Source: Escherichia coli
GTDB taxonomy: Bacteria; Pseudomonadota; Gammaproteobacteria; Enterobacterales; Enterobacteriaceae
NCBI RefSeq assembly: GCF_022846255.1
Contig: NZ_AP025682.1
DNA length: 64,000 nucleotides
Direction: 5' to 3' (one strand)
A program made the position numbers and the translations under genes. Under the pieces are notes generated by a model that ran no database searches, was not told the DNA's origin, and worked only from the letters and a program-made list of their open reading frames with translations. Positions 18,968 to 44,730 of the stretch are shown here, piece by piece. Positions within the stretch are counted from its first letter, which is position 1. Each line of letters starts with the position of its first letter.

Positions 18968-18973
18968 TCGATC

Positions 18974-19681: not shown

Positions 19682-19684
19682 GAG

Positions 19685-25554: not shown

Positions 25555-25566
25555 CTCATATCAACC

Positions 25567-28500
25567 TTAAATGACTGGATCGAACTGTGGCTTAGCAGCC
25601 AGAGAAGCCGCCCACAGGGCATGGCGTTCTTTATCAACGGTTACCAAATCGCGCCGCCTCAGTTTTTGAACTTTATTCAGGAAGAGATGGTTATCAAACA
25701 TTGATTGGGCGTTTTCATCCGAAATACCAGTCAGGTAGATGAGCTGGATTTTATAGGCTTTGGCCATTTGGGTTTGAATGCGCATTAGATCATTGGCATT
25801 CGATTTACCCAGCGGGTTATCGGCTAACAAGAATCCTGCACTTGAAATACCCGTATCGTACTCTCGTACTTTACCAACCGTCACAAACAGTAAAAAGGCA
25901 GATGTAAGGCGCTGTCCACCCGAACCTTCAAGTCGGGTGACAGGAGTCCATTGTGGACGGCTGGCATTCGTCTTCAGCAAACGCACCTCCAGTTCCCCTT
26001 CGCCAAATACCGACTGAACCAAATCAGCTGTCAAGGCGTCCCGATTGGGCGCTCGGGGTATCTGTCCCCTGGCTATCCACTGCTGCAAGCGGCTGCTGGC
26101 AAAACCCCTGATATCAGCGGCAACATCATTCAACCGGTCGGTCATTTTAATAATGGGCCGACCAGGCAGTACGGGGCAATCCTCAGGAATTTTGACCGAC
26201 ATCGCGCGCCTGAGAAGCTTAATCGCCCCTTCCAGATGAGCAGTCAGATGGGTGACAGTCAGATCAATCGAACGTTGGAATTGCTCGAGGCTGTCCTGCA
26301 CAGCTTCGAATACCTGCGAGATCCCTGTACCGACCCTCTCCAAATCGCCCAGCACTTCATGATAAGTTGCGATTGAGTCCAACGGCCGTAAGTATTCCTG
26401 ACTGGCTCGGGCGTCTGGATCCTTGGCCAACTCTTCTTCGATGCGTTTGCGGAATTTTCCCCAGACCGTAGAGACGCGCATATTTTGCTGTTTTAGCGTT
26501 TCATTTAAACCGGCATACACTTGGCATTGTGCAGCCAGATCGTCAGCATATTCTGTGATGCTCAGGATCCTACCAGGTAGACCTGCGGCAGAGCTCGGCG
26601 TAATGGGCTGGATCATCGCTTGAGCTGTTTTGGCGTTCTGTAGCCGCTCTTTCACATTTTCAATCTTTCTCAACAGCAGTGTCTTTTGTTCCAGTAGGAA
26701 CTTGATCTGGTGTTCAATCGCATAAAGGTTATTGACGATTTCAGCCAGAGACGTTTGGATTGCCTCTATCTCAATGGGCTTCTCTTCCCAGACAAAATCC
26801 TCGTCAAGTGCTTTACTAGCCTCCTCACAGCTTTGGGAAAATTTTTGCAGAGTTACCTGAGAGCTAATTAGATTTTGCGTGAATTGCTTTTGCTGTTCTT
26901 TGAGGCGTACGATGCTGTTATTAATTACCGTTAGCTCATTGATGGCCGCAGCTTTTACCTCATCCGGATATGTATTGTAGGTGGGTTGAGCGGTCAAACG
27001 ATCAGAGGCGTAACGTTGTGCCTGTTCAGCATCTTTCAGTTGTTGCTTGAGAACGGTCACTTGATCACCGTTGGCTGCTTCGAGCAATTTTTTGTGCGCC
27101 TGAGCAGCCATCTCATGGGCATATTCAGGGCTTCGTCCTTCCATACCTTCAGTCGCCGTAATCTCTGAATAGAACGGTTCGTTACACAGATTACTCCAGC
27201 TACCTATCTGGATAATTAAAAGGGTTTTCTCGGAGCGTTTGTTCTTCTCGAGCTCGCTCAGCCGTTCCAGCCTCTCTCTCTGGGTGTAAAGAGTGTTCTT
27301 GCTTCGCTGAATCTGTGCAGCTAACTGCTCCAGTTTCATTATCGCCGTTTCACGCTTCGCCCATTCTTTTTCTACAAAAAGACTCACTTTATCATGTGCT
27401 TTTTCTGCCTGAATTTTCTGCTGTTGGGCGTTGTTTAAACGCACCTGGACATCTCTCTTCTCGTCACGCAGTGTTTGCTCATCATGCTCAGCTTGCTTAA
27501 GTGCTGCATCAGCATTTTCCAGTATTAATAGAGCCAGCTCCCGTTGGTCAAGCAGTCCCGCCCAATGCTTACCATACTGTTCGTAATGCCGACTCCAGTC
27601 ATTCCTGAAAGATTCCAGTACTTTAAGGGCGCTCTCCGCAGCCTTCACACTGACTTCCTGCGACGCTACGGTATTCTCCAGGTCTTGCAGCCGGGTTTCG
27701 TAAGCGGCCTGGCTATATCCGTGCTTATCGGGGTTTGAGAGGACAACCTGTACTAATTCAGACGTTTCTCGGCGGAGATCTTGTGCTTCATCCAGCAAGT
27801 AAATAGCAATAGGTGCCTTCTTCCAGGGTAGGATCTCACTAATTTTATGGACCTGTTCAAACGTTACATTGTCGAGTGCGACCAGGCTCAGGTAGCGGCC
27901 AGGGTTCTGATCGATCACCGCTGCAATCTTTTGTGCATCATCGTTGTGAGCAGAGGCCAAATAGTGTGGAAATGTCCATAGCTTATCCCGTGCAATGCCC
28001 GCAGCATAAAACGCTTCAAGTGCCTCATTGACCTGCTTAGCAACCAGTTCATGTCCCGTCACCCTCAACTCGTCCAGTTCGTGCCGGGCTTGCAGTAAAC
28101 GCTCTTTCATTCCATTCAGCGTTTGAGCGTTCGCATTCAATACTTTGTCGAGCTGCAATCCACACAGCTCGCTGTGCCAACTCGTGTCTTCAATATCCAG
28201 ATCATGTCGCGTTGACGATGGCAGTTTTTGATAGGTTTTTGCTAAAAGTAAGGCACTATCCACAGCTGACTGGTGTTTTTGTTTAGCCAGAATGAGTTTT
28301 TGCTGGGCCTCACTTTTCTCAATTGATGCCTCCCGCACAACATTCAGCTGTGCTTCCAGCGCCTGCTCTTTCTGATGAAGAATTGTATTAGCCAGTTCTT
28401 CACTCTGCTTTGCATCGCGTAAGGTTAATTCCAGTCGGTATTGGGCTGCTACTGGTGTTTCATCCTTCTGGATCAACCCAGCTTCACATAATTCATTCCG

Positions 28501-30003
28501 TTGCGATTCGCCCTGAAATTTGTCTCTTTTATATCCGTCACGCTCCGTTTCCAGACCACCCAACGTCTTTTGTAGTTTATCGTATGACTGTCTGAGGACA
28601 TGGCTTTCCCTGTCCATCTGCCCTAATTCTTCCTCAAGCGTAGCCTCCTGCTGGCGATGTCTGTCGATTGCCCACTCTAATGTGCCCAAGGCTTCGCCAG
28701 CAGTACGCTCGAAAATCACCTGTAGCGGCCTTTCCGTTTCACTTTGGAATACCTTCAGATCTTCATCTGCCTGGCGGTACTCATTCAGGGCCTTAGCATA
28801 GGCTTTGTAGTCTATAGCAGCGTGAGTAATCTCAATCTGGTGCTGATTGGTATCGGCTTCGTCTTGAAGCGCATCGACTATCGCTTTTTGTTTGTCGAAC
28901 TGATGCTGCACGAGATCATATTCAAGCAGTGCTCTGCGCTTACCTAACTGCTCACGCAGAGACATCGCCTGGCCAATATGTGTTTGCAAACTATCCATGT
29001 TATCTTCAAGCTGCGTCTGTTCAACCTGAGCATCCCCGACAAAGGCTGCGAGATCGCGCATTGCTTCTCGGAAGCCATCATCCAGCAGTTGCTGCTGTGC
29101 CTGGATGCTTTCCAGCTGTTTAGCCGGATCAAGAAACGCCAGCCAGTTAGCCAGCACATCCTTCAGGAAGGACTCGTTACGACGAATCCCCTCTAACTCT
29201 CCCTGACGCTCAACTTCATGCGCTACCAGTTCCCGCAGCCGCTCAGCCGCATCTTTAGACATGGTGCAGGCGAAGAACGCGCCAAGGAAATCATGTTCAG
29301 TTTTGTATTCGATAAAACGGGTCAGGCCACCTTCTTCGGAGTTGAAGGTCACCATTGTTTTGATAAGATCAACGTTAATTTGTTGTTCCAGTAAAAATGC
29401 GCGCCACTCGTTCTGTCTGGTGGTTTTACGCCAATGCATACCGCCTTCACTACCGGCCTTGAGATTAAGCCAGCTATCAAAACTGCGCAGGCTATTGGCA
29501 TAGGGGCGCAGCTCAGAATTGCGTTCCGCGCGGGAATAAGAAGGGACTTCATCAAACGGCGCGCCCATCAGGGAGTCGGGCGCATCACAAATAAACAGTG
29601 TCCGGTCAACATCATCTCCATTACGCTGATGAGCATGTCCTAGTAATAACGTTTGTCCTGATTCATTGACCATCTCAACCAAAACAACAGAGAGTTCTTT
29701 ATAGAAGTAATTGCGGTAGTGGTATTCACTCTGGCGATGATTTGCCAGATATTGGGTGAAGTCACTAACGGACGGCTCAAAAATCGATAACAGCAGCGCG
29801 ATGTAGGTCGACTTACCACCCCCATTCACAAGCTGCTGATAAGTACTGGTCACCACCTTCGCATTCCTGACGGGCGAGCGCAGACCTTCAACAACAGGGC
29901 TACTGACCGCTTGAGACAGGCCAATATAGTCCAGTGTGAGGTCCTTGTAGAAAGCTTCTTCATGGCCTGCACCATCCATATAAACCCGTTTAATCAGCCA
30001 CAT
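25567..30003 (-). CDS. jetC: JetC-like SMC/MukB-family ATPase (Wadjet)
   Basis: 1478 aa; N-terminal P-loop (VNGGGKSTY), very long coiled-coil middle, C-terminal signature/Walker B region (LLADNPLGKSNANDL...IQLIYLTGISDE). Confidence 0.7.
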   Translation of the reverse strand: MWLIKRVYMDGAGHEEAFYKDLTLDYIGLSQAVSSPVVEGLRSPVRNAKVVTSTYQQLVNGGGKSTYIALLLSIFEPSVSDFTQYLANHRQSEYHYRNYFYKELSVVLVEMVNESGQTLLLGHAHQRNGDDVDRTLFICDAPDSLMGAPFDEVPSYSRAERNSELRPYANSLRSFDSWLNLKAGSEGGMHWRKTTRQNEWRAFLLEQQINVDLIKTMVTFNSEEGGLTRFIEYKTEHDFLGAFFACTMSKDAAERLRELVAHEVERQGELEGIRRNESFLKDVLANWLAFLDPAKQLESIQAQQQLLDDGFREAMRDLAAFVGDAQVEQTQLEDNMDSLQTHIGQAMSLREQLGKRRALLEYDLVQHQFDKQKAIVDALQDEADTNQHQIEITHAAIDYKAYAKALNEYRQADEDLKVFQSETERPLQVIFERTAGEALGTLEWAIDRHRQQEATLEEELGQMDRESHVLRQSYDKLQKTLGGLETERDGYKRDKFQGESQRNELCEAGLIQKDETPVAAQYRLELTLRDAKQSEELANTILHQKEQALEAQLNVVREASIEKSEAQQKLILAKQKHQSAVDSALLLAKTYQKLPSSTRHDLDIEDTSWHSELCGLQLDKVLNANAQTLNGMKERLLQARHELDELRVTGHELVAKQVNEALEAFYAAGIARDKLWTFPHYLASAHNDDAQKIAAVIDQNPGRYLSLVALDNVTFEQVHKISEILPWKKAPIAIYLLDEAQDLRRETSELVQVVLSNPDKHGYSQAAYETRLQDLENTVASQEVSVKAAESALKVLESFRNDWSRHYEQYGKHWAGLLDQRELALLILENADAALKQAEHDEQTLRDEKRDVQVRLNNAQQQKIQAEKAHDKVSLFVEKEWAKRETAIMKLEQLAAQIQRSKNTLYTQRERLERLSELEKNKRSEKTLLIIQIGSWSNLCNEPFYSEITATEGMEGRSPEYAHEMAAQAHKKLLEAANGDQVTVLKQQLKDAEQAQRYASDRLTAQPTYNTYPDEVKAAAINELTVINNSIVRLKEQQKQFTQNLISSQVTLQKFSQSCEEASKALDEDFVWEEKPIEIEAIQTSLAEIVNNLYAIEHQIKFLLEQKTLLLRKIENVKERLQNAKTAQAMIQPITPSSAAGLPGRILSITEYADDLAAQCQVYAGLNETLKQQNMRVSTVWGKFRKRIEEELAKDPDARASQEYLRPLDSIATYHEVLGDLERVGTGISQVFEAVQDSLEQFQRSIDLTVTHLTAHLEGAIKLLRRAMSVKIPEDCPVLPGRPIIKMTDRLNDVAADIRGFASSRLQQWIARGQIPRAPNRDALTADLVQSVFGEGELEVRLLKTNASRPQWTPVTRLEGSGGQRLTSAFLLFVTVGKVREYDTGISSAGFLLADNPLGKSNANDLMRIQTQMAKAYKIQLIYLTGISDENAQSMFDNHLFLNKVQKLRRRDLVTVDKERHALWAASLAAKPQFDPVI

Positions 30004-30005
30004 AC

Positions 30006-30902
30006 TTAAATCTCCGTCAAGCGTTGCGTTTCTGTGGTTCCAGTTGTAACTGGACGTTCATTGAGCGAAGGAAACTCCAGGGTATCTGCTAATGCTGCAA
30101 GATCGCTTTCAGCTAAATCGGACGACCGTTCTTCTACGGCTGGACTGATGCTCATGACAAAGCGCACCGTCTCTTCGATGCCAGTATGGCGCAGATAATG
30201 TTTGAGTTTTTGGGTCGGATACCAGTCGGACTCTCCCGACAAACTGCTGTCTTCGGCCAGAAAGCCTTCCTCCTGCAGCAGTTGTATCCAGCGCGTTGCC
30301 ATTTCTGTTTGCGAGCGAATACTTGAGACACGCCCTACCTTTTCGTCGTGAATACGGGGAATACGTTCTTCCTGCACAAACCTGGCCGCCATAAGTAGGC
30401 CATCTACGGTATCGTCACCCTCGGCCTTGCGCTGGGCAATCACCTGGTCGGCAACATTATTGAGCCTGGCTACCACCGAGGCTGCATTAATGGCGTTACT
30501 CTGACCGAACTCGACACGAACGGTGTCTGGAGTTGGAAACAAATCAGCCAGCAACGCAATCAGAGTTAAGCCTGCAAACAGGCGCTGTTCTTTCCGTTCC
30601 TTACCCTGTTGCTCAGCCATTGTTTCAGGTAGCAAGCGTTTGTTCAGCCAACCCAAAGATGGGGAAAACGGACCTCGGCCATCTGCAGCCAGTAATACCC
30701 CGTAGGTCTCATGAATCCCGAGATACCGCAATTTCATACCTGTCGCGACGCCACGGATAATCTCTGTGAACAGGGCATCACCTTGCAGATCAAGAGCACG
30801 TTGAATCAGCTCATCCCCCATTTTATATCCCAGTGAATTCATAATTGCCTGCGTGGCAATCTCGGCGTAGCGTTTAGTTTGTTGATGCGCGTTGTCGTAC
30901 AT
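30006..30902 (-). CDS. jetB: JetB-like (MksE-like) subunit (Wadjet)
   Basis: 298-aa ORF translationally coupled between jetA (4-nt overlap) and jetC (3-nt gap); assignment by size and operon position. Confidence 0.55.
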   Translation of the reverse strand: MYDNAHQQTKRYAEIATQAIMNSLGYKMGDELIQRALDLQGDALFTEIIRGVATGMKLRYLGIHETYGVLLAADGRGPFSPSLGWLNKRLLPETMAEQQGKERKEQRLFAGLTLIALLADLFPTPDTVRVEFGQSNAINAASVVARLNNVADQVIAQRKAEGDDTVDGLLMAARFVQEERIPRIHDEKVGRVSSIRSQTEMATRWIQLLQEEGFLAEDSSLSGESDWYPTQKLKHYLRHTGIEETVRFVMSISPAVEERSSDLAESDLAALADTLEFPSLNERPVTTGTTETQRLTEI

Positions 30903-30904
30903 AA

Positions 30905-32371
30905 CTACTCCTCAAAGGGGTATAAGGGAGCAACCGTTAACAGTTTGATATTGTTAGCCCGCCAGAGCGTTGTTTCGATAGCGCCGTCTATCTCCACTTC
31001 TATTGCGGGATCGCTGTTAGCTGCCAGGCTGCCAATATGGAGTAAACAAACCTGTTGCTCTTGTTCGGATAATTCTTCGCCCTCATAGGCGTCAAAAACA
31101 TCTCTAAAGCTCACATGCCCCCAATTCTTCAATCGGTCACTAACCCAATCGCTGCATTTTTTAATGACAGATTCAGGGATACCTCGCAGGTTGGTTTCAA
31201 TAGCTACAGGCTGATCGGTGAGGTCCTGTATCTCATGTGGAAGCGCCTGTTCAAATCTATCGAGATAAAGGTTCAGCAGCGCCTCAAGGTCAAACAGAAT
31301 GTGCCGATCATCATCCTGTCTTCGGGGAGCCAACAGGCGTGCGGTGAGATCATCGATTTCCTTTTCGACAGTGTCGGGGGAATGAGACAGCAAGGGCTTG
31401 AGTGCACCTTTTTCCAGTGTTTCCCGAAAGAGGGTATTATCTCTGGGAATAATGAGTTTCAGACGAGCTCGCTCAAAATCTTTATTCACATCCAGTAAGC
31501 AGTCTTGATAGCGCTGCGTAAAAGCGCAGACCTCAGCAAAAATCTCCTGTGCTCTACGTAGCTTATTTAATTTGTCGGGATTTAATTTCGAAATTCCTTC
31601 AACCAGCATTTCGGTAATGGCCGACATTGAGTTCTGGATATGTTCCAAAACCTCTCGGGTTTTATCAAAGGAATCATTGAGTACGGGACGGATATCGTGT
31701 GCATAAGATGCACTCAAATCACCAGACTGGGCGGCACGCACTTTCATCCGCATTCCAATCAGATATTGCTCCAGTTGCCGCTGTGTTGATTGGATTTGGT
31801 GTACTGCCTTGTCGATCTCTCCGCGACGGATCGTTTTAAGCGTGCGCCAGGCCAGAATCGCAGCGCGTTCTATCGGCGTTTCATCCAAGCGCAGGGTATA
31901 GAACAACATTCCTTCATCAGTCAGCGACCAGAGAATATCATCTGAGCCGGATAGCTGGTCATAGCGTACCAGACGGACTATCTGCTCTTCGGAATGCGTT
32001 CGTTGCGAGAAATCATAATAACGGAGGCGGAAAGGATCTTTGATCGCCACAAAAATCTTGCTGGCCACTTGTGCGTAGTCGGGTTCTTCTTGTCCCGGAT
32101 AGGCTTCATTGAGGTGCCCAACCAGACATAACTCCGCTTCCTTACGCGTCATTCCAGGCCGGCGCTCGCGGTCAGCATAATAAAGCATGGCGTCAAAGAG
32201 ATACATGATTGCCGCCAGCGCATCAAGCTCAACACCATCGAACGGATTTCGCTGAAGGGCGCTATATATTGAATCCAGCGTCCGCACGACCAGCAAGGCG
32301 TGAGACTGAATAGACAGCTCACGACGTGCCATTGATTCATTACGAGCCTGCTCCAAAAACCCTAGCGACAT
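30905..32371 (-). CDS. jetA: JetA-like (MksF/kleisin-like) subunit (Wadjet)
   Basis: 488-aa ORF, first gene of the operon; assignment by size and position upstream of JetB/JetC/JetD. Confidence 0.55.
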   Translation of the reverse strand: MSLGFLEQARNESMARRELSIQSHALLVVRTLDSIYSALQRNPFDGVELDALAAIMYLFDAMLYYADRERRPGMTRKEAELCLVGHLNEAYPGQEEPDYAQVASKIFVAIKDPFRLRYYDFSQRTHSEEQIVRLVRYDQLSGSDDILWSLTDEGMLFYTLRLDETPIERAAILAWRTLKTIRRGEIDKAVHQIQSTQRQLEQYLIGMRMKVRAAQSGDLSASYAHDIRPVLNDSFDKTREVLEHIQNSMSAITEMLVEGISKLNPDKLNKLRRAQEIFAEVCAFTQRYQDCLLDVNKDFERARLKLIIPRDNTLFRETLEKGALKPLLSHSPDTVEKEIDDLTARLLAPRRQDDDRHILFDLEALLNLYLDRFEQALPHEIQDLTDQPVAIETNLRGIPESVIKKCSDWVSDRLKNWGHVSFRDVFDAYEGEELSEQEQQVCLLHIGSLAANSDPAIEVEIDGAIETTLWRANNIKLLTVAPLYPFEE

Positions 32372-32546: not shown

Positions 32547-33440
32547 ATGTACTACTCAAAGTTTCTTGAGAAACACAAATCCCCCCTCAGCCACGCACAA
32601 TGGTTGCGCTTGCGCTATATTGAGCGCCAGCTACTGTGGGAACGAAAAGTCACTTCGCGCATGATTGCTGAAGAGTTTGGCGTCTCGGCGCAACAAGCTC
32701 GTACTGATGTAAGAACCTATATGGAGGTCGCTCCAGGCAATGCTATTGAGAAGGGGGCCGGCCGAAAAGGGTATTTCCCCAGTACGACGTTTACGCCTGT
32801 TTTGCTGGGAGACAACGATCTGGTCTGGCGTGCGACGGTAGAATTTCAACCGCCGCAAGCGGCCCACGCGCAGGAAATCCCGCTCATCCATCGCGCCGTG
32901 CATAGCCGCACGCTGGCAATTTTTTTGTCAGCAATCGAACAGAAAGGACAAGTAAAAGTGACTTATGCGTCAATGGAAAACCCGGAAGGCATATCTCGTA
33001 CACTAAGCCCTACGGTAATTATCACCGTTAACGGGCGTCAGCATGTGCGAGCCTATGACTGGGGAAGTTCGGCGTTTAAGGACTTTGTTTTGGCGCGATT
33101 TCTGGACTCGCCGGAACTGATTGTTCCTGCACCCGCCCCGCCACGCAAAGATACCGCGTGGGAGGTCATAATCCCCGTGCGTTTTATCGCAAATCCAACA
33201 CTAAACAAAGCGCAACAAGAGGTAATTAAGCGGGACTATTTACTTGAACCCTCTGAATTCAACATTCGTGCACCAATGATTTTTTATTTATGCCCTGAAA
33301 ACAATCTGCCTAAAACAGATGATGAATATGCACAAGCTACTGACGCCAGCAGCCACGGCCCCTTTATCTACCCTGTTCTAGCTGTGCACGCCCAAACAGG
33401 GGAGCCTATTCATAAGTACCGCCATGCAGGTGAGAGATAG
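32547..33440 (+). CDS. HTH transcriptional regulator with WYL-like domain (BrxR/CapW-like)
   Basis: HTH segment (SRMIAEEFGVSAQQARTDVRTYM) followed by WYL-like core (VRAYDWGSSAFKDFVLARF); divergent from jetA. Confidence 0.45.
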   Translation: MYYSKFLEKHKSPLSHAQWLRLRYIERQLLWERKVTSRMIAEEFGVSAQQARTDVRTYMEVAPGNAIEKGAGRKGYFPSTTFTPVLLGDNDLVWRATVEFQPPQAAHAQEIPLIHRAVHSRTLAIFLSAIEQKGQVKVTYASMENPEGISRTLSPTVIITVNGRQHVRAYDWGSSAFKDFVLARFLDSPELIVPAPAPPRKDTAWEVIIPVRFIANPTLNKAQQEVIKRDYLLEPSEFNIRAPMIFYLCPENNLPKTDDEYAQATDASSHGPFIYPVLAVHAQTGEPIHKYRHAGER

Positions 33441-33559
33441 ACATTCTGTTTACTAATAATTTATAGCCATTTTCTGCTCCTGCATCAGAGATATGATGCA
33501 GGAATATTAAATACCAGCCACCTATAAATTATGATTTATTAATTTCTGATTCAGTTAAA

Positions 33560-33850
33560 TCCCTCTGAAAATAGACCCGTTTTAGTTCCATGCATCTTTA
33601 GAAATTCCGACCAAATAATGGGGTCGGCAAACATCTATTTGAGACGTTGGTTCTCATCCTCAAGATCCTTGATTATTTTAATATCAGAAGATTCCATACC
33701 GCCGTATCTGGACTTGCAGTTGTAGTAAGTGGCTTAAGATAAGCCGGCCTCCCGGCAGACATCTTTAACAGTTTGCCCGTATTCAAGCGATTTAATCACG
33801 GCGATAATCTGATTCTCAGTAAAAGGGACTTTACGCATAGCGATCTCCTT
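33560..33850 (-). mobile_element. Degenerate IS3-family transposase OrfA fragment
   Basis: Minus-strand ATG at 33838 with AGGAG RBS encodes MRKVPFTENQIIAVIKSLEYGQTVKDVCREAGLS then a stop; a shifted frame continues with a leucine-zipper-like ...KDLEDENQRLK...; no OrfB follows. Confidence 0.4.
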
Positions 33851-33948
33851 CATTGGCAGATTGATTATGCCGGAGGATCTCTAAATGTTAATGGCACGAT
33901 TATGCGGGATATTTACAATACCAGTCCAACCCTCAGCTTACTGCAATG

Positions 33949-34818
33949 TCAATCAAGAGGGATGGTCCACATTGACGTATCAAAATCGATCTCTGACCAG
34001 CGAGCAAAACGTAGCTCACTGGAGCGAATAAAGATAAGCAGAGTGAGTTCCGTTGCCCAGCGGGTTAGCGGCCTGCCGGTATAGCCGTCTATTTTCTCAA
34101 GTAACTCAGGGATGCGCTTTAACTCCAGCGCCGGACGATGCTGTCGATTACTGGAAGCAACCGCCCCCGCCATCTCTTGTGCCGGGTTATAATCAATTAA
34201 TCCACTTTGCACTGCATAACGCATGATGGCCGTGGTGCGCTGTTGAAGGCGGGAAGCCACTTCAAAACGTCCAGATTTCTCCACGGCTTTAATGGGAATT
34301 AACAGATCGCGGGTGCCCAGTTCAGCAATATTGCGAGCAACAATTGTTGGGAAGATATTGTCCTCCAGGCTCTTTTTTCCACGATTAGCATGATCTTCCG
34401 ACCATTTTTGGTTGGTTACGAGCCACTCTCTGGCAACCTTCTCGAAAGTAATAATCTCTTTCGCCTGCTCTTCTTTCACAGCACGTTTATGCTCACGAGG
34501 ATCGATACCAGCAGCGACCAGCTTTCTGGCCTCTTCCCTTTTCTTCCGCGCATCCGCCAGCGAAACATCCGGGTAAACGCCGAACGCCATCAAATGTTGT
34601 TTACCACCAAAACGGAAACGAAATCGCCAATACTTTGAACCGCCAGGTTTTACAAGTAAAGACATGCCGTCGCCGTCAACAAGTGAATACTCTTTCTCCT
34701 CAGGTTTTGCAGGACGAACTTTAGTATACGTTAGGGCTATAGTGGTCTTCCTTCCATTGGTATCTCGTGAGTATACAAGCAATATCGAATCGGCAAATAT
34801 ACTTATAAGTATACTCAC
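33949..34818 (-). pseudogene. P4-type tyrosine integrase, C-terminally truncated (intB-like remnant)
   Basis: Residues align with the N-terminal two thirds of the intact integrase at 51593-52840 (GSKYWRFRFRFGGKQ..., RLQQRTTAIMRYAVQSGLIDYNPAQ, LTLLIFIRSSELRFARWSEIDF) but end at ...WTIPLD before the catalytic region. Confidence 0.75.
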
Positions 34819-34903
34819 AAGCCTGTTGATGTGGGTTGAGTCAGGTTGACTTCAGTTGAGGAGAAAAGCTGGAAAAGCCTTGCGTAGCGCGGATTTCAGG
34901 CAT

Positions 34904-34927
34904 AAAAAAAGACCTCAGTTGAGGTCT
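34904..34927 (-). terminator. Intrinsic terminator (ancestral leuX terminator relic)
   Basis: Hairpin agacctca-gt-tgaggtct flanked by A7 on the plus strand, i.e. stem plus T7 on the minus strand; lies just downstream (minus sense) of the partial tRNA copy. Confidence 0.6.
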
Positions 34928-34940
34928 ATTTACATACTTT

Positions 34941-34963
34941 TGGTGCGAAGGCCGGACTCGAAC
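34941..34963 (-). repeat. 23-bp direct repeat of the leuX 3-prime end (att site / island junction)
   Basis: tggtgcgaaggccggactcgaac matches the 3-prime end of the tRNA at 53030-53054 except for one deleted base. Confidence 0.8.
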
Positions 34964-35685
34964 ATATTAATTATCCCGTTGTATTTAAGGCTATTTTATC
35001 AAAATCATTATTGAAGTACCATCATTAATACCATCATAGGTATTGTTCTCCTTTGGCAACAGTTCTTTGATATCGAAATACTTTAACGAACTTTTTATGA
35101 CATCATACTTTGAAGAAAAAATCACATACTGATTTTCATCCAGTACATCTTGCAAGACAAGGTATAAAACAGGGACTACGATTAAAAATAGCAAAGTCAT
35201 TCACTAAATGAATTCAAAATCAGTGATGTTCTTATCTGCAAGAATATAATATATTTAAAAGATTATAAGCAATATATAAATAATAATATAGCTTTAAAAA
35301 AACACACATGAATTAGAAGTTAAATACATTAATTAAAGAAACAAATAAGTAAGAATTTTGTTTTTAAATAACTCATGCAAACGCATCGTTTATTTATATT
35401 AAAGGAAAATGATGAAATCCAATCTAAATTTAAATAGCTACATTACAAACGAATAGAAAAAGAAGCATTTTCCATGTTAAACTACTATCTTGGTGAAGAC
35501 AGGGGGTATAGCCTTCTGCGGTAGCCTACGCTCTTCGAATGCAAAGCAAGAAAATAACCTTTATAATCAAATTGTTATGCAATGCGCTTGTAGAGCAAAG
35601 GTATCTTAAACGAATAGGTTTAACAGTTAAAGCCTCTTTACATAGGCTGAACAAGGGCAGTACTTGAAAATGATAAAATTGGGGT

Positions 35686-37371
35686 ATGTTTAAAATTATG
35701 AATGCCCATAGTTTAGAGATGAGAAAAGAGTTAGGAGCATATTATACTCCAAGTGCTCTTAGTCAAGTGATGTCAGATTGGGCAATTAGAAGACCAACTG
35801 ATAAAATACTTGAGCCAAGTTTTGGAGGCTGTGGCTTTTTAGAAAGCTGTGAAAAGAGCCTCATGGAGATAGGCTGCATAAACCCAATGGAAAATTTATT
35901 TGGGGTTGATGTAGACCAAAAAGCCTTTGATACTCTCAAAAAAAAATATGGGCATTTATTAATAAAAAAACATTTCATTTTAAGTGATTTCATTAACGTA
36001 TTTCCAAAAGATTTTGGCATTGAAGATTTTGAGGTTATCATTGGGAACCCTCCTTATATCTCTATGCATAATATGAGTTATGAACAAAGGAAGTCCTGTG
36101 AAAAAGTTTTTGCTGACTCACCTTTTAAAACAAAAACATTAGGACGCAATGCAAGTCTTTGGGGGTTTTTCTTACTCCATGCATTAAGCTTCATTCGAGA
36201 AAATGGACGAATAGCGTGGGTATTACCGAGTAGTTTTTTAAATGCCTATTATGCGAAAGAGCTTATAAGAATTTACAAAAATCATTTTAACCATCTAAAA
36301 ATAATAAAGATAAATGAAAGACTTTTCAAAAATGAAGGTGCCGATGAAATGTCAGTACTTTTTTTATGCGATGAGTTTCACAGGACACCTATCAATAATG
36401 GATACGTTTCAATTGGATTTGCTGACACATTAAATGAACTAACCAGCATAATGACTGGAACTAAAGAAAACAAATTAAATAGCTCTGAAAATTACAAATA
36501 TAATATATTAGATATTGACACATTAAATGTGATATCGTCTATAACAGAACATAAGTACAGTTTAAAAATACAGGATATTGCTGATATAAAGATTGGGATG
36601 GTAACCGGCATGAACAACTTCTTTATATTGGATCAAAATCAAATTTTAAAACATAATTTAGACAATAAACATTTTAGACCAGTTATTTCACGATTTTCAC
36701 ATTTGAAGGGAATTCACCACACATTAAAAAGACATACGAAGTTAATTGCAGACAATAAAAAAGGATTGCTATTACACGTCAGTCCAGATGATTTATATGA
36801 AAAACATAGTCCGTTGAGAAAATATTTATCACAAGTTGATAGAAAAGAACGAGTCAAAAACCGCACATTCAAAAAACGAAAAAAGTGGTTTCAACCAGAT
36901 GATGGTATTTACCCAGACGCATTTTTTTCATATATGGTTCATGAGTTTCCCAGAATGATATTAAATAAAGGGAAAGTTAACTGCACTAACTCAATACATC
37001 GTATCTTTTTCAAAGATATAGCATCTAATAAATTAAAAAAAGCATGTTGCATATCTCTTTTATCAACATTTTCACAACTTTCTGCCGAACTTGAAGGTCG
37101 GTCATATGGCTCAGGTGTGCTAAAAATAGAGCCTACCGCAGGAAAGAACATATCATTCTTAATTAAAGATGATTTAATACACGAGTTAAGCAACTTAAGT
37201 AAAGAAATAGATCAATTGCTTTTAAATAATGAAACAAGCAATGCCACTGCTTTAGTTGATAAGTTTTTTGTTGATAAGGGACTAATTAGCTTAGATGAAT
37301 TGAAAAGTCTTAAAAAAGGGTTATTCAGATTAAGAAAAGATCGATATAAAGGGGTCAAAAATTATGAGTGA
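35686..37371 (+). CDS. N6-adenine DNA methyltransferase (Eco57I-like gamma-class) with C-terminal extension
   Basis: Motifs GAYYTP, ILEPSFGGCGFL (motif I-like) and IIGNPPYIS (motif IV, approx 36044-36060); 561 aa; first gene of a tightly overlapping four-gene operon. Confidence 0.8.
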   Translation: MFKIMNAHSLEMRKELGAYYTPSALSQVMSDWAIRRPTDKILEPSFGGCGFLESCEKSLMEIGCINPMENLFGVDVDQKAFDTLKKKYGHLLIKKHFILSDFINVFPKDFGIEDFEVIIGNPPYISMHNMSYEQRKSCEKVFADSPFKTKTLGRNASLWGFFLLHALSFIRENGRIAWVLPSSFLNAYYAKELIRIYKNHFNHLKIIKINERLFKNEGADEMSVLFLCDEFHRTPINNGYVSIGFADTLNELTSIMTGTKENKLNSSENYKYNILDIDTLNVISSITEHKYSLKIQDIADIKIGMVTGMNNFFILDQNQILKHNLDNKHFRPVISRFSHLKGIHHTLKRHTKLIADNKKGLLLHVSPDDLYEKHSPLRKYLSQVDRKERVKNRTFKKRKKWFQPDDGIYPDAFFSYMVHEFPRMILNKGKVNCTNSIHRIFFKDIASNKLKKACCISLLSTFSQLSAELEGRSYGSGVLKIEPTAGKNISFLIKDDLIHELSNLSKEIDQLLLNNETSNATALVDKFFVDKGLISLDELKSLKKGLFRLRKDRYKGVKNYE

Positions 37372-39673
37372 AGATATTCTTTTTTTGAAGGATAAGATGA
37401 AAGCCCTCCTGGATAATGAGGCTCTCGATTATGATAAAGTATTAGAAACAGCAGTAAAAATCACCGAAAAAGACAACAACAATATTAGATTTTCTGTAGA
37501 TGCGAATTTAGTTAGAAGATTAGGTGAGCAGTTAGTCGCTAAAAAAACTACTGCTGTCAGTGAATTGGTGAAAAATGCTTATGACGCAGATTCGACATTA
37601 GTAAATGTATATTTCGAATTGAACGAAGCAAATCCTCGAATAGTCATATTCGATGACGGCACAGGTATGTCAAAGGAAGATATTATCAATGGATTCATGC
37701 GAATAAGCACAAGTGAAAAAGAAGATAACTCTGTTTCAGAACGATATCAGAGACTAAGAGCAGGTAGAAAAGGTATTGGGCGTTTTTCTACACAGCGATT
37801 AGGAAATTATTTAAAAATAATTACCAAGCAAGAAAATGAAGAGTTAGGATATTTAATAGAAATTAACTGGCAGCAGTTTTCAAAAAAGAAAAATATATCC
37901 TTCATTGCTAACACTATCTCAAAAATCGATGTGGATTTCATTCATGGAACAAAAATAATAATAGAAGATCTGAATGATAAAGATTGGTCTGATGGGAACA
38001 TAAAAACGGCTTATAAATATATTAAGAGCATTATAAATATTGCCCCAAGCGAGACAGATCCAGGTTTCCAAGTAAAGTTCTATTATAAAAATGCCAATGG
38101 CTATGAATTAGTTGCAGATGAGAAAACTGAAATTTTTTCTGATAGTGATGCTCATATTACAGCAACACTTGAAAATGGAAATGCTGTAGTGAGAGTTAGC
38201 AGTGAAACCCTTGGCATAAAAAATGAAAGCATAGATGTATGGTATGATGAAAAAAATAACATACGAAAATTCTCACATATAAACTCTCCAGTAAAGCTTG
38301 ATGCATACTATTTCTCATTAGCAACAGTTAACTCCAGAAAACAAGCGGCATATTTACGTGAAAATGGCGGAATAAAAATCTATCGAAATGGATTCAAGGT
38401 TTCTCCTTATGGAGAGCAGTATGATGACTGGACGGCTCTTGATGACTCGGTTCGAAGGAGAAAGATATTACCCCCTCATGGTAATCAAAACTTCTTTGGA
38501 CACGTCAAAGTTGAAGACCTAAATGGAATAGACTTTGAAGAAACGTCCTCAAGGGAAGGTCTGATTCATACCGATGCCTTTCAAGAACTTCGCCTCTTTG
38601 TATATAAAGCACTGACGGCTGCGGTAATAAGAATTAGTGAAGCCAGAAATATAAAAATAAATCCAAATGACCGTAGCTATGTTAAAGAAACTAAACCAAC
38701 AATATCAGTCAAAGATAAATTAAATATTGTATCTGAAACGATAAGCTCGGTTAGTAAATTGGTAGATGCAGCAACATCTGTTGATGACGTTTCAAGTGAT
38801 GGTGTCATTAATAACATTGAAGATAAAAGTATAAGAAACAAAATTATTGAAGATCTCCATGAAGCCGCAGATGAGCTAAAACAAGCGAGTGTGATATCTC
38901 AATCTTTAATCGATGAAATTGAGCTTCTTAGAGTGCTTGGCGCTATGGGCCTTGCTATTGGTGAGTTTACACACGAAATAAATTTATCAATAACAAGTTT
39001 GAGTATTAACGTTCAAAACCTTAAACAGTCTAAATTATTAGAGGAAGATAGAGACTCTGCTCTAAATAGCCTTGAAAATAATATTGCAACATTAAAATCA
39101 TTTACTAAATTTTTTGACAGTACTATACGTGAGAATGTAAACAGAAATAAGAAAGTTATTGAGATAAGAGACTCTATTGAGCCATTTTATGAATCGATGA
39201 AACCAATAATAGAACGCAAAGGAATTCAGTTTGCAATACATTATGAAGGTTATGAACTTTTTACGAAGCCGATTCATGTTTCAGAGCTATATTCTGTATT
39301 TATAAATCTCTTTACGAATGCATATAAAGCAATACTTCGTTCTGGAACAAATCCACGAAAAATGTCTTTAACTGCGAAAAAAGATAGTGAAGATATAATT
39401 ATCCGATTCGAAGATAGCGGTGATGGAATTGAACCTGCAAATAGAGAAAGAGTTTTTGAGCCTTTCTATACAACAAGTACACCATCAGGACCTTTTGAAA
39501 GTGATGATTTATCATTAAAAGGAATGGGATTGGGGTTATCAATCGTACGTGATCTCGTTGAATCCATGTCTGCAGAAATATCTATAGTTGATGCATCCGA
39601 TGGTTTTACAACGTGCTTTGAGTTGAGAATTCCAAAAGCTGATGATAAGGAAATACCAGATGACATCTATTAA
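37364..39673 (+). CDS. Dual Bergerat-fold ATPase: N-terminal MutL/HSP90/MORC-like GHKL module plus C-terminal histidine-kinase core (HisKA-like H-box + HATPase_c)
   Basis: N-terminal motifs ELVKNAYDAD (approx 37562-37591), DDGTGMS, GRKGIGRF; C-terminal H-box GEFTHEINLSITSL (approx 38961-39000), N-box LFTNAYKAIL, G1 EDSGDGIE, F-box FEPFYTT, G2 GMGLGLSIV; no obvious TM segment; start overlaps MTase stop by 8 nt. Confidence 0.7.
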   Translation: MSEDILFLKDKMKALLDNEALDYDKVLETAVKITEKDNNNIRFSVDANLVRRLGEQLVAKKTTAVSELVKNAYDADSTLVNVYFELNEANPRIVIFDDGTGMSKEDIINGFMRISTSEKEDNSVSERYQRLRAGRKGIGRFSTQRLGNYLKIITKQENEELGYLIEINWQQFSKKKNISFIANTISKIDVDFIHGTKIIIEDLNDKDWSDGNIKTAYKYIKSIINIAPSETDPGFQVKFYYKNANGYELVADEKTEIFSDSDAHITATLENGNAVVRVSSETLGIKNESIDVWYDEKNNIRKFSHINSPVKLDAYYFSLATVNSRKQAAYLRENGGIKIYRNGFKVSPYGEQYDDWTALDDSVRRRKILPPHGNQNFFGHVKVEDLNGIDFEETSSREGLIHTDAFQELRLFVYKALTAAVIRISEARNIKINPNDRSYVKETKPTISVKDKLNIVSETISSVSKLVDAATSVDDVSSDGVINNIEDKSIRNKIIEDLHEAADELKQASVISQSLIDEIELLRVLGAMGLAIGEFTHEINLSITSLSINVQNLKQSKLLEEDRDSALNSLENNIATLKSFTKFFDSTIRENVNRNKKVIEIRDSIEPFYESMKPIIERKGIQFAIHYEGYELFTKPIHVSELYSVFINLFTNAYKAILRSGTNPRKMSLTAKKDSEDIIIRFEDSGDGIEPANRERVFEPFYTTSTPSGPFESDDLSLKGMGLGLSIVRDLVESMSAEISIVDASDGFTTCFELRIPKADDKEIPDDIY

Positions 39674-40763
39674 CCTACTTTATATCGATGATGATCAGCC
39701 TCAGCAAGTAAAGGGTTTAATTGAAGCAATAATCAGTAAAGCGAGTTTTGATTTAAATATAACTCATAAACCGCCGACGAAAATGAGTGAAATAGCCATA
39801 GAGTTGAGACAAGGTTATGATGGTATCATCATAGATCAAAAACTTGACAGCTTTGTTGAGGGAGTAGAACCAGTTGATTACTTTGGTGCCGCGTTAGCAC
39901 AAAATTTGCGAACACTCATGGCGGGTAAGTCAGATAATATATCTTATAAGCCAATAATTTTACTCTCTCTCGAAAGCTTATTAATTGAATATTATAATCC
40001 CGATTCAAGCTCGCATGATCTATTTGATTTAGTTTTGAGTAAAAGCATATTAGAACAACCAGAATTGTTAGAAAAAAAAGTTCACTTAATAAAATCTATT
40101 GTGAATGCTTACAAACGTGCACATTCGGAAGACTCGTTATATCAATTGCTTTCTCTGAGCAGTAATTATTCATTGCTTGATAAAAGATTTGAAATATATA
40201 TTTCTCAGTATGATAAAGATATACATAAGCTCGTCACATCCATACACTCCACACTTCTGAGAAGTAGTGGCATGTTAGTTTCTGAGATAACTTTGGCAAC
40301 CAGACTGGGTATTAATATTGAAGAATCGCCAGACTGGCACCAAGTAATTGGGCACCTTGAGGAATATAAATACAATGGCATATTCTCTGATTATTATAAA
40401 AGATGGTGGTGGGCAGATGTAGAGTTGTGGATAAATAAAAAGCTTAACTGCCCAATAATTAAAGGATTAACCTCAGAAAAAAGAGTGGAGATCATCAAAG
40501 AAAAACTTGGCTTAGAACGATTGATGCCAATTCATAGCGTACATCCAGGCCAAAGCACCAAGTTTTGGGTTAATTGTATCATCAGTAAAGAACCTCTTGA
40601 TACAATAGATGCTCTTCGTGCATCATCTATGGAATTAAAACCTTGGGAAGATGATAAATACCTTTCAATTAAAACAGTGTTAGAGAGACGGGCCGAAAAA
40701 TATAAAGTACATCCAGAAGATAGAACAAAATTGGATCGAATTCGGGCGAGGTTTAAATTATAA
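39642..40763 (+). CDS. Receiver (REC)-like domain protein with unassigned ~250-aa C-terminal domain
   Basis: CheY-like pattern: LLYIDDD (beta1, acidic pocket), GIIIDQKL (candidate phospho-acceptor Asp), KPIILLSLES (beta4 Ser); divergent REC, so call is tentative; overlaps kinase gene stop. Confidence 0.5.
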   Translation: MIRKYQMTSINLLYIDDDQPQQVKGLIEAIISKASFDLNITHKPPTKMSEIAIELRQGYDGIIIDQKLDSFVEGVEPVDYFGAALAQNLRTLMAGKSDNISYKPIILLSLESLLIEYYNPDSSSHDLFDLVLSKSILEQPELLEKKVHLIKSIVNAYKRAHSEDSLYQLLSLSSNYSLLDKRFEIYISQYDKDIHKLVTSIHSTLLRSSGMLVSEITLATRLGINIEESPDWHQVIGHLEEYKYNGIFSDYYKRWWWADVELWINKKLNCPIIKGLTSEKRVEIIKEKLGLERLMPIHSVHPGQSTKFWVNCIISKEPLDTIDALRASSMELKPWEDDKYLSIKTVLERRAEKYKVHPEDRTKLDRIRARFKL

Positions 40764-41506
40764 TGAACAATAATACAACTTTGTTAGACGATATGTGTAG
40801 GCTCAGGGACTTTTTATATGATAGCCGCATATGCCCAGATATTAATCCTCTCAACCGTTTAATCAGTAAACTTAATGCAAATCTCCACTCCGAAACAGGG
40901 GAGGACTTTGAATACTCTTTAGACGATTTAGTATTTTATCTTAGCGAAAAATCTGGAACAATTTGTCCGACCCAAATTACACCCAAAGAAAACCCTATTG
41001 AAATACATTTGGAACTTATATTAAAAAGTGAAGGCCCTTATGAATTTTCGAAGATTAAAGAACTTTCAGGGCAATTACGACTTAAAGCTGAGTGGATCAA
41101 TGACACAACAGAAAAAATTGAGATAAAAACATCACATAGTGCTTGGCATTTTGATTATCATGTTCCTCAAATGGGGGATGGCGTAAATTCATTTACTCAT
41201 CCTCAATTCCATTTACAAAATGGAGGAAACAGGCTGACTGATAATTTAAATGACTATGGAGAGTTAATGATTCTTGATGCTCCAAGACTACCTTTACCTC
41301 CTATGGATGTGATATTAGCCATTGACTTTATTATTTCAAATTTCTTTGGTTCTATTTGGCAACAAGCATTATGTGATTCAGAATACATTGATGTAGTTAA
41401 AAGAGCACAAAAAGCATGGTGGAAACCTTATTATGAAGGTATAAGTCAACACTGGTCTGGCAATGGCTCAGGAATATCCAATATCCTAATTCCAAACCTT
41501 CTGTAG
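40763..41506 (+). CDS. Hypothetical protein (247 aa), fourth gene of the operon; possible effector
   Basis: ATG overlaps preceding stop (ATAATG); His-rich segment HFDYHVPQMGDGVNSFTHPQFH; no confident motif. Confidence 0.6.
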   Translation: MNNNTTLLDDMCRLRDFLYDSRICPDINPLNRLISKLNANLHSETGEDFEYSLDDLVFYLSEKSGTICPTQITPKENPIEIHLELILKSEGPYEFSKIKELSGQLRLKAEWINDTTEKIEIKTSHSAWHFDYHVPQMGDGVNSFTHPQFHLQNGGNRLTDNLNDYGELMILDAPRLPLPPMDVILAIDFIISNFFGSIWQQALCDSEYIDVVKRAQKAWWKPYYEGISQHWSGNGSGISNILIPNLL

Positions 41507-41771
41507 TGTATCAAAATCTGTTAACCATCTCCAATTACGAATAGCAATATTTATATAAAACTAATTTTTTATTTTAAACAACTTCAGCAAGGGCTAACTC
41601 TCAGCATCTCCTTCGGTGATACTTTGAGTTGCTCCTTGTTTTTTCGCCCTTTGGTTGAAAAAATTAAAAGCAAAACCAACCCTATACATTGACTTTTTCA
41701 GCATCTATCATATAAATAAAATAAGCATAATGGACATGCTTATTTTACTTTACTATATGAAAGGAGTTCAT

Positions 41772-42185
41772 ATGAATGATAGGAATCATACTTTTAATAA
41801 GTTCGAGCCATTCAGAAGTTGTAGCTATGAAAATTTTACTTCTGCTAAAACACTCTCCCAGCAGACACGTTCTCATTGTATTAGTATCAGATTAAATGAT
41901 GCCGAGTTATCTTACGTTGATGGCTTACGAGAAGATCTCAACCGTGCTGTTTGGATACGTATGTCAGCATTGAATCGTCTCCCTTCCAAAATTCCTGAAA
42001 TAAATCTAATTGTCTGGAAAGACCTTGCCAAAGCATCTCAGAATCTGAATAACCTCGTTCAGCATCTCAACACTAAATCACACGATAGTCCTTTTACTAT
42101 CACCGAAATTTATACGGTACAAAAAAGAATAAAAGCACTAAGAGATGCCCTTCTGTCAGCAAATCGATCTGTCAGTGATAAATAA
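41772..42185 (+). CDS. MobC-like mobilization accessory protein
   Basis: Strong RBS aaggag 5 nt upstream of ATG 41772; small basic protein with ribbon-helix-helix-like segment (CISIRLNDAELSYVDGLRED); stop overlaps relaxase start (TAATG). Confidence 0.55.
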   Translation: MNDRNHTFNKFEPFRSCSYENFTSAKTLSQQTRSHCISIRLNDAELSYVDGLREDLNRAVWIRMSALNRLPSKIPEINLIVWKDLAKASQNLNNLVQHLNTKSHDSPFTITEIYTVQKRIKALRDALLSANRSVSDK

Positions 42186-43372
42186 TGAAAGGGATGCAAA
42201 AAATCCGCAGAGGAAAGAGTTTTGCTGGTGTCGTCCTCTATGCGTTAAAGCCCGGTTCTCATCATAAAAAAGACCCTATCGTGATCGGTGGAAATATAAC
42301 GATAGTTGGCAATGCCGCTAAAGATCTGATCGCTGAATTTGATAGCACCAAACAGCTTCGCCCTGACGTGCAAAAGGCTGTTTGGCACAACTCGCTTCGC
42401 TTACCTAAAGGTGAATCACTAACGGCTAAACAGTGGTCTGAAATAGCAGATGATTACATGTCCCGCATGGGCTTCTCTGAAACGCATCTCAGATGCTACG
42501 TCCTACATGACGACGAAGATGGCCAGCACATCCATATCATCGCCAGCAGAGTGTCTCTTGATGCCGGAAAGCTCTACCTCGGCAGGAATGAGAACCTGGC
42601 AAGCACGAGAATAATTCAGCAACTTGAAAGAAATTACAATCTGACAAGAACCAAAGGGCCAGGAGCTAAAGCATCTACATCTTCTCTTTCCTCTAAACCG
42701 AAACATAAAAAATCACGTAATGAGGCTATGTTAGAGGAGAGAACTGGTGAACCATGCCCTAAATCCATCATCCAAAGGGCTATAGATTCGATAACATTAA
42801 ATCCTATAGCAATTGATGACTTCGTTGAAAAGCTGAATAGCATAGGGATTACGGCGAAAAGCAATATTTCTTCAACTGGCAAGATGAATGGATTTTCCTT
42901 TGAATGCAAAGGTGTTGTGTTCAAAGCTTCCCAGCTTGGCAAGAAGTATAGTTGGAAGAACCTGGAATCAATGATTTCAATGAATTACAACTCACACATT
43001 GGTGATGAAAAACCTGTCATCCCTGAACCTGCTGCCCATCGCAGCAACGAAGCTGTCATACCTATAGTGGAAGACTATTCTGATGAAAAGATTTACCCTG
43101 AGATAAGGGTACCCTTACCAAGACCTGACACAGCGCCCACAAAACCTACAAGCATGACAATGCGTTGGATCGCAACCATACCTTATCTTGTGAGTGTTAT
43201 TAGCGCACTTAAAACGATGCGTATCCCCTTTCTAAAGGCGTTCAATGGCCCAAGGAAGTTCTTTTCCGTGTCCATGATTCACCTGTCCTCTGTAAGCCTG
43301 AAACAGACCAAAACGAATAATTTCAAACCAAAAAGTTCCCACCAAAAGGCCCACAAGCCCCTTCTCCCCTGA
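42185..43372 (+). CDS. Mobilization relaxase (MobA/VirD2-like)
   Basis: Relaxase histidine triad region HDDEDGQHIHIIASRV (HxH motif), N-terminal nickase-like domain; coupled to the MobC-like gene. Confidence 0.65.
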   Translation: MKGMQKIRRGKSFAGVVLYALKPGSHHKKDPIVIGGNITIVGNAAKDLIAEFDSTKQLRPDVQKAVWHNSLRLPKGESLTAKQWSEIADDYMSRMGFSETHLRCYVLHDDEDGQHIHIIASRVSLDAGKLYLGRNENLASTRIIQQLERNYNLTRTKGPGAKASTSSLSSKPKHKKSRNEAMLEERTGEPCPKSIIQRAIDSITLNPIAIDDFVEKLNSIGITAKSNISSTGKMNGFSFECKGVVFKASQLGKKYSWKNLESMISMNYNSHIGDEKPVIPEPAAHRSNEAVIPIVEDYSDEKIYPEIRVPLPRPDTAPTKPTSMTMRWIATIPYLVSVISALKTMRIPFLKAFNGPRKFFSVSMIHLSSVSLKQTKTNNFKPKSSHQKAHKPLLP

Positions 43373-43580
43373 TTTCTCCACAGATAAACGATCGTTATAA
43401 TCGATCGATTTATTTATATTGATAGTCAATAACAATCAATAGGTAAATAATCGATCGGTACAAGCAATTTGCTATGTCCTTAGAAGTGTTCAAAATGTAC
43501 TTTCATGCATAAATCGGATAATAGGTTGATTTTACTAGCCTATTTTTCTATCCACGTATCGAACATGCAGGGACTGAAGT

Positions 43581-44171
43581 ATGAGATATCTCATGATGAA
43601 GCGTGTAATGTTAGCAATCCTTCTTCCGTTTATTGTTGGATGTTTATTTGGTGCTAAAGCATTATCAGAGTATTGGGTTGTGTGGTTTTTTGTTTGTGCA
43701 ATGTTGATGATCACAGCCTGGGGCGTGTGGTTAAAAAATAAAAACAGAGGTTCCAGCTTCAGCTACCTGAATGATAATGAAGATGGTGTATTTATCTACA
43801 AATTTCATAATCAAGAGATGCGTTTAGATAAAGCCAAAAAAGAGCTTTATTTAAAAGATGGGTTAAACGAAAAAACCTACACTTTTTCCGATGTTGAAAG
43901 CTGGGAATATAAAATTAGCACAGGTGGTCAGATCCTCACTTCAGGTCTTAACCCTACAACTAACTTGATTAACAATAAGATTCTTGGTGAAAACATTAAT
44001 GACACCGGCTTCTTTATCAAAGTTAAAGACATCAGAAACCCTGAGTGGCATATTCGATTCTTCCCTCAAGAAGGATCTTATAAAGATCAGAGGGGATTAA
44101 TTAGCTTAAAAAAACAGATGATGCAGTGGATGACCGTTTTTGACTTAATCGTAAATGCTGATACAAAGTAA
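43581..44171 (+). CDS. Hypothetical inner-membrane protein (two predicted TM helices)
   Basis: N-terminal hydrophobic segments (VMLAILLPFIVGCLFGA; WVVWFFVCAMLMITAWGVWL) then soluble domain; function unknown. Confidence 0.6.
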   Translation: MRYLMMKRVMLAILLPFIVGCLFGAKALSEYWVVWFFVCAMLMITAWGVWLKNKNRGSSFSYLNDNEDGVFIYKFHNQEMRLDKAKKELYLKDGLNEKTYTFSDVESWEYKISTGGQILTSGLNPTTNLINNKILGENINDTGFFIKVKDIRNPEWHIRFFPQEGSYKDQRGLISLKKQMMQWMTVFDLIVNADTK

Positions 44172-44182
44172 GGAAAACAAGA

Positions 44183-44473: not shown

Positions 44474-44566
44474 ACTTAATTATATTTGACAATAGAAAAA
44501 TAGTACGTCATAGATAGTAAATTGATAACAACCAGTGGGTTGAGCCACTGGCTGTTATCCCAATGG

Positions 44567-44644: not shown

Positions 44645-44730
44645 ACGCCACTCCTTCTTTTTCATCATCAACCTTATTGTTGGTGATGTTGCCTCTTTGG
44701 GCTGATGCAGATTATCATTTTAGAATACTA

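Follow-up and report, generated by a model that had tools for sequence, protein, structure and literature searches.

With a probability of about 90%, leuX in the 64-kb window (the whole stretch of Escherichia coli DNA analysed, 64,000 nt) is the site of a tandem, serially built array of islands, in which an older P4-type relic has been displaced from the tRNA gene by a newer 18-kb element. The structure is of a known kind and the window provides a clean example of a known process; the sole new fact is the pairing of this element with this relic. The array leaves the current understanding of such loci unchanged, and its value lies in the exact borders of an 18-kb mobilisable element and in the relative order of arrival at one of the busiest integration hot spots of E. 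coli.

The only tRNA gene found by ARAGORN in the window is leuX, encoding tRNA-Leu(CAA) on the minus strand (53030–53114). This intact 85-nt gene is identical to leuX of K-12 and CFSAN061771, and the gene beside it at 53268–54329 matches ahr, its neighbour in annotated E. coli genomes as well. The 3′-terminal 24 nt of leuX, GTTCGAGTCCGGCCTTCGGCACCA (53030–53053, minus strand), represent the proximal repeat (attL core). The partial tRNA copy proposed in the initial annotation is indeed present in the same orientation at 34941–34963: this displaced leuX 3′ fragment (attR core, minus strand) is 23 nt long and reads GTTCGAGTCCGGCCTTCG-CACCA. Compared with the last 24 nt of leuX, one G is absent from it (TTCG-CACCA) in the 3′ strand of the acceptor stem, and the exact direct repeat is 18 nt long (34946–34963 and 53036–53053). 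The pair thus comprises a tRNA gene and a co-oriented 3′ fragment of it, the kind of displaced tDNA on which the Islander method is built (PMC4383910). No third leuX fragment, which could have marked the far end of the older island, was found in the 64-kb window when up to three mismatches were allowed. Consequently, the older island is not delimitable here; its far end may have disappeared or be located beyond the window.

The sequence that follows the displaced fragment is that expected downstream of leuX. From the CACCA of the fragment, the next approximately 57 nt through the terminator are the K-12 leuX–intB intergenic sequence, and this stretch includes the hairpin and T7 tract that had been noticed beside the tRNA copy. 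The terminator scan placed this relic leuX intrinsic terminator, identical to that of K-12, at 34903–34927 on the minus strand: a 7-bp stem with a 4-nt loop (AGACCTC-AACT-GAGGTCT, 34910–34927) is followed by T7 at 34903–34909. Its predicted fold has an energy of −17.2 kcal/mol (z −2.4), and it has the characteristics of a Rho-independent terminator. Beyond it lies the upstream (arm) region of the relic integrase, about 160 nt (34741–34902, minus strand), which is specific to the lineage of this integrase and departs from K-12 after ...CTGAAATCC.

These flanks bear on the suggestion that the 23-nt match arose by chance or through a local leuX–integrase duplication, for which only the shortness of the repeat could be brought up. 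Searching 100 shuffles of the window with the leuX 24-mer at ≤3 mismatches gave no match at all, and the fragment is flanked by genuine leuX-downstream sequence, a point on which the displaced-copy interpretation had been made to depend: besides the K-12-identical flank, the relic abuts a full leuX in 357 other genomes (see below). In strain TUM11353, which carries a near-identical copy of the 18-kb element, homology stops exactly at the repeat. The relic and the intact integrase are only 61% identical in their DNA and their flanks are unrelated, which argues against duplication. Chance or duplication can therefore be practically discounted, and the 23-nt match is treated below as the displaced end of leuX.

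The relic integrase is a P4-family pseudogene of 263 codons (33953–34740, minus strand), truncated after the box-I Arg. It is 63% identical in amino acid sequence to residues 1–261 of the intact 415-aa integrase located at 51593–52840, so that the two are clear paralogues, as the tandem interpretation had supposed. According to Pfam, its arm-binding and central domains are intact, while the catalytic domain is represented only by positions 6–58 of 172. The statement that the gene was truncated before its catalytic residues needs a small correction: the Lys, His-x-x-Arg, His, and Tyr are gone, but the box-I Arg (R239 in IRSSELR) is retained. A complete R-K-H-R-H-Y catalytic domain is in any case absent. 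The breakpoint at 33953 was set against the full-length (frameshifted) homologue of BS-04, which is 95% identical up to this position. The start codon is ATA in the window, ATG in CFSAN061771, and ATT in XDL; the window has nine private substitutions, of which this change is one. RefSeq genomes already list the relic integrase and the transposase fragments among their pseudogenes.

The nucleotide identity of the relic to K-12 intB is only 72%; it therefore belongs to a sister lineage and is not an orthologue. Thus, the ancestral leuX–terminator–intB arrangement recognised in the initial annotation holds for the terminator and for the order of the parts, but not for the identity of the integrase. 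Among the 5,426 complete E. coli genomes used for the population comparison, the best match of the relic segment (33300–34963) is 96.4% identical, and that of the adjacent Wadjet region 99.6%. The mismatches of the relic form a mosaic, in which the left part resembles CFSAN061771 and the middle part 702/18; this points to homologous recombination among relic alleles rather than to local decay. Two other sources of this pattern were considered and rejected. Gene conversion between the tandem integrases does not account for the 3.6% divergence, as just one of the nine private sites matches the new integrase, and an origin of the window from another Escherichia species is at odds with its core genes, which are 99.9% identical to those of NU14-type E. 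coli.

Downstream of the breakpoint, the debris first described as an IS3-family OrfA fragment proved to belong to that family, but it is an internally deleted element with both ends rather than a piece of orfA alone. This 352-bp remnant (33566–33917, minus strand) keeps both terminal repeats, beginning with TGTAAATATCCC... at 33917 and finishing with ...GGGTCTATTTTCA at 33566. Its first 296 nt, comprising the left end and orfA, are fused at 33621/33622 to its final 56 nt, which contain the right end. With orfB deleted and two in-frame stops in orfA, the remnant represents a dead member of the IS3 family; its identity to an annotated element of that family is 84–88%. Its flanks, CTC and ATA, give no target-site duplication. 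A 35-nt spacer (33918–33952) separates it from the integrase breakpoint and has no homology to the full-length integrase or to the IS. Truncation of the integrase by a single IS insertion was not supported, because the target duplication and the remainder of the integrase are absent and 35 nt intervene. The missing duplication together with the missing 3′ part of the integrase implies that the truncation involved more than a simple insertion.

The newer island, 18,066 bp between the two leuX repeats (34964–53029), has its own intact integrase, as had been claimed. This P4-family tyrosine integrase of 415 aa (51593–52840, minus strand; NCBIfam PRK09692) possesses all three Pfam domains (Arm-DNA-bind_3, Phage_int_M, and Phage_integrase) and the motifs R239, K~278-280, H342-x-x-R345, H369, and Y379. 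It lies 190 nt from leuX and so stands beside the tRNA gene as the Islander scheme expects. A scan of the minus strand between leuX and the new integrase gene (52841–53029) recognised no intrinsic terminator, and the 94-nt RNA downstream of the resident leuX folds worse than its shuffles; leuX transcription may read through into the new integrase gene.

Further mobility functions are encoded within the element. An AlpA-like protein of 67 aa (50288–50491, minus strand) matches PHROG 66 and 2790 (E about 1e-10), labelled ‘excisionase and transcriptional regulator’. A MobP-type relaxase is encoded on the plus strand at 42185–43372; its match to NCBIfam TraI_MobP_relax (E 1e-19) is below the curated cut-off, and its counterpart in TUM11353 is annotated as a relaxase. 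The annotation of the TUM11353 copy, which is 99.8% identical, lists no type IV secretion genes. The integrase, the AlpA-like excisionase, and the relaxase domain, with no annotated mating-pore genes, together have the composition of an integrative mobilisable element, and judged from these genes the 18-kb element may be mobile at present. Three consecutive recombinase-type genes are located at 45757–49905 (minus strand): two tyrosine recombinases and a 543-aa ‘DNA-binding protein’, with weak matches to GmtY of the gamma-mobile-trio. In other E. coli, the stretch spanning the relaxase and this trio (about 42316–50476) is also seen elsewhere in the chromosome, which suggests that it may be a separate, nested mobile unit.

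The cargo of the element was first described as a methyltransferase and a two-component system. The methyltransferase was confirmed as a type II N6-adenine enzyme (35686–37371), but the presumed two-component gene (37364–39673) encodes a 769-aa fusion of restriction-like and histidine-kinase-type ATPase parts. Residues 42–206 of this protein match restriction enzymes of the BbrUII/HgiDII family and residues 525–760 match HisKA/HATPase_c, and RefSeq labels it ‘sensor histidine kinase’. On these domain matches, the pair more likely forms a restriction-modification-like module than a two-component system, and the fusion may belong to an ATPase-coupled restriction-like system. Two further cargo ORFs (39642–40763 and 40763–41506) have no family match, and the element also encodes a DUF6387 gene.

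Comparison with other leuX loci revealed the state preceding the insertion, as the tandem interpretation predicts. Of the 5,426 genomes, 734 have the leader of the relic lineage, which immediately adjoins a full leuX in 357 of these carriers and is displaced in about 377; the tandem state is therefore about as common as the simple one. CFSAN061771, one of the 357, shows the order leuX, terminator, truncated integrase, transposase fragment, BrxR, and Wadjet without the 18-kb element, and the Wadjet/BrxR region is 99.6% identical in this and other strains lacking that element. The slot between leuX and the relic is occupied by other islands elsewhere: by a P4-like satellite with SIR2 cargo in XDL, by the radC-yeeU-cbtA end of a larger, PAI-like island in O157:H7 86-24 and clone D i14, and by yet another element in O157:H7 TR01. 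On the other side, the leuX insert of TUM11353 is 99.8% identical to the 18-kb element over its full length and ends at the same base, but its distal flank is a type I restriction system and its repeat is a perfect 24 nt. Variants with other cargo are found in A42 and many other strains. The TUM11353 copy with its different flank and the existence of the relic alone indicate that the 18-kb segment is a discrete element, one that has been inserted into chromosomes of different background. The proposal that the methyltransferase island arrived more recently than the relic region is therefore supported: the relic occurs alone elsewhere, its slot receives different islands, and the same element is seen in TUM11353 beside another flank.

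These data also weigh on the idea that the 18-kb element, the relic, and the defence genes came to leuX as one composite island, in which case the internal tRNA fragment would be a scar inherited with it and no sign of a second insertion in this lineage. Tandem islands can move together in principle, and the exact junction of this element with this relic was found in no other of the 5,426 complete genomes, so that a local event is not directly observable. On the other hand, the relic with Wadjet stands alone beside leuX at 99.6% identity in many genomes, the 18-kb element stands alone with another flank in TUM11353, no outer repeat bounding a composite was seen in the window, and the relic integrase is dead. 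Joint arrival is thus very improbable, and serial accretion is the reading retained here.

Behind the relic, a stack of defence genes fills the left part of the window. Next to the IS remnant is a BrxR/WYL regulator (32547–33440, plus strand), followed by type III Wadjet JetABCD (24499–32371, minus), a PDDEXK nuclease (23374–24372, minus), a phosphorothioate-DNA-binding restriction enzyme (22334–23263, plus), an HNH nuclease (21615–22193, minus), a truncated nanM (20999–21607), Zorya II ZorA2/B2/E (17258–20788, plus), Druantia III DruH (13744–17103, minus) and DruE (7430–13753, minus), and a SNF2 DrmD/BrxH-like helicase (4348–7206, minus). Upstream of the helicase, positions 1–4300 contain no convincing long ORF; the ORFs listed there look spurious, with low-complexity translations. 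Only homologous recombination would still move this stack with its Wadjet, Zorya II, Druantia III, and other systems, because the integrase that anchors it is dead. Its composition differs between strains, and in O157 Wadjet is missing and the phosphorothioate-DNA restriction enzyme comes directly after the relic. This variable gene content beside the relic marks the older region as a mosaic and not as one insertion. The view of the Wadjet/HNH island as older and probably immobilised is accordingly upheld by the comparative data and the dead integrase, but it does not follow from the geometry of the locus alone, as the O157 strains without Wadjet illustrate.

The following order of events would account for the present structure. 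An earlier P4-type island would have entered the 3′ end of leuX, producing the arrangement leuX–terminator–integrase. IS3-family-associated events would then have cut the integrase at codon 263, after which the IS itself decayed, and the remnant would have been left immobile, attached to the stack of defence genes. Later, the 18-kb element would have recombined with leuX inside the 18-nt GTTCGAGTCCGGCCTTCG, which extends from the T-loop to the acceptor stem, and supplied a new intact 3′ end for the gene, so that the previous 3′ end, the terminator, and the dead integrase came to lie 18 kb away. In this account, the anatomy, the homologies, and the distribution among genomes were observed, whereas the order of events is proposed, and so is the position of the crossover, which was taken from the literature on PAI II536 and P4; excision and restoration in PAI II536 place it within the 18 nt. 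The attP of an excised circle would accordingly read intact ...TTCGGCACCA and then the integrase-side flank of the element.

The closest known parallel is PAI II536, whose 18-bp flanking repeats are used in excision and whose P4-like integrase acts on leuX only (PMC9686529). Excision of this island leaves leuX incomplete, whereas its return to the deletion mutant ‘restor[es] the complete tRNA gene’ (PMC3202238); a junction primer for the island in that paper is CGAAGGCCGGACTCGAACA. The window shares with it the leuX target, the same 18-nt repeat, the leuX-specific P4-like integrase, and a lesion after nt 18. The distal copy of PAI II536 in the 536 genome reads GTTCGAGTCCGGCCTTCG-ACCA. The two differ in cargo, 102 kb of virulence genes in PAI II536 against 18 kb with the methyltransferase/restriction-like module, the recombinase trio, and the relaxase in the window, and in the lesion: strain 536 lacks two nucleotides (GC) on a different flank, while the window lacks one G on a K-12-type flank followed by the relic integrase. 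The K-12 locus (leuX–intB, the end of the cryptic prophage PR-Y/KpLE2) resembles the window in having leuX, the terminator, a P4-family integrase pseudogene, and an IS, with the tRNA end and approximately 57 nt identical. However, its intB is full-length, has the 72% DNA identity to the relic given above, and still adjoins leuX, and the IS, downstream of intB, is an IS2, whereas the window has its IS3-family remnant at the site where the integrase is truncated.

Phage P4 itself has a 20-bp attP core, GAGTCCGGCCTTCGGCACCA, that lies inside the window repeat, and its integrase has the same family and domain layout; integrases of the P4 type use T-loop/junction subsites (PMC4383910). Both the core and these subsites are consistent with a crossover inside the 18-nt repeat. 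Unlike P4, the window element has no replication or capsid-size genes of P4 but possesses a relaxase, and its repeat reaches 4 nt further in the 5′ direction (24 nt). When the distal end of the P4-like island of XDL was used to look for its attP in a phage collection, no match was obtained. The locus also resembles the 125 tandem arrays reported with the Islander method (PMC4383910), with a regenerated tRNA gene and a displaced 3′ fragment as island ends and with repeated use of one tRNA gene. It deviates from them in that only the newer member has both an integrase beside the tRNA gene and a displaced fragment, whereas the older has an integrase pseudogene and no distal leuX fragment in the window. 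Besides these parallels, leuX is a classic integration hot spot (PMC7545054).

Small deletions recur at exactly one position in displaced leuX fragments, and among the present observations this alone is of mild interest. The one-G deletion was found in 134 E. coli records, in only two of which it affects the resident leuX. When eight displaced copies were read base by base, five had lost the one G, one (strain 536) had lost GC, and two were intact. The fragment of 536 (1091–1113 of the extracted locus) lacks the GC exactly where the window and 133 other records lack the G. Island ends of at least four kinds and downstream flanks of two kinds are found beside the lesions. The 18-nt core is unaltered in the displaced copies with the exception of XDL, where, as in P4, the repeat begins 4 nt further on. 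A one-G deletion inherited from a single origin does not easily explain this pattern: whether it is linked to the flank or to the element, neither version fits all seven junctions sampled. Given the recombinational mosaic of the relic region, some of the spread of the deletion may be due to homologous exchange.

The two exceptional records are 702/18 and BS-04, in which an 84-nt leuX with the one-G deletion is resident (2940–3023 of each extracted locus) and adjoins the relic integrase lineage, a state seen in 2 of the 5,426 genomes. ARAGORN calls this gene only by shifting its acceptor stem. Since the deletion lies 3′ of the proposed crossover, precise excision of the 18-kb element would leave such a damaged 84-nt leuX, and from its sequence the locus of these two strains is what would be expected as the product of excision.

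The deletion could alternatively have been carried in by the attP of the element, with a crossover 3′ of it, and this would explain simply why the lesion accompanies at least four island ends and two flanks. However, the attP of phage P4 has the G, and the 24-nt copy left by the near-identical element of TUM11353 is intact, which makes it unlikely that the lesion was brought by the element. Moreover, there are only about 5 nt of identity 3′ of the lesion, the excision and re-integration of PAI II536 put the crossover 5′ of it (PMC3202238), and resident leuX genes with the deletion do exist. We therefore consider delivery by the attP improbable, and take the lesion to have been present in the 3′ end of leuX that was displaced.

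The lesions after nt 18 might also be scars of integrase cleavage or selected ‘excision traps’ instead of random decay, a speculative suggestion of low probability. If it were true, precise loss of an island would yield a defective tRNA-Leu(CAA); the resident island would thereby be stabilised, and any element bringing a good leuX 3′ end would be favoured in re-occupying the site. The relic would then be a passive addiction and turnover device for the defence-island slot at leuX. As for the window itself, loss of the newer element is predicted to damage leuX, whose tRNA is known to affect fimbriae and virulence in uropathogenic strains.
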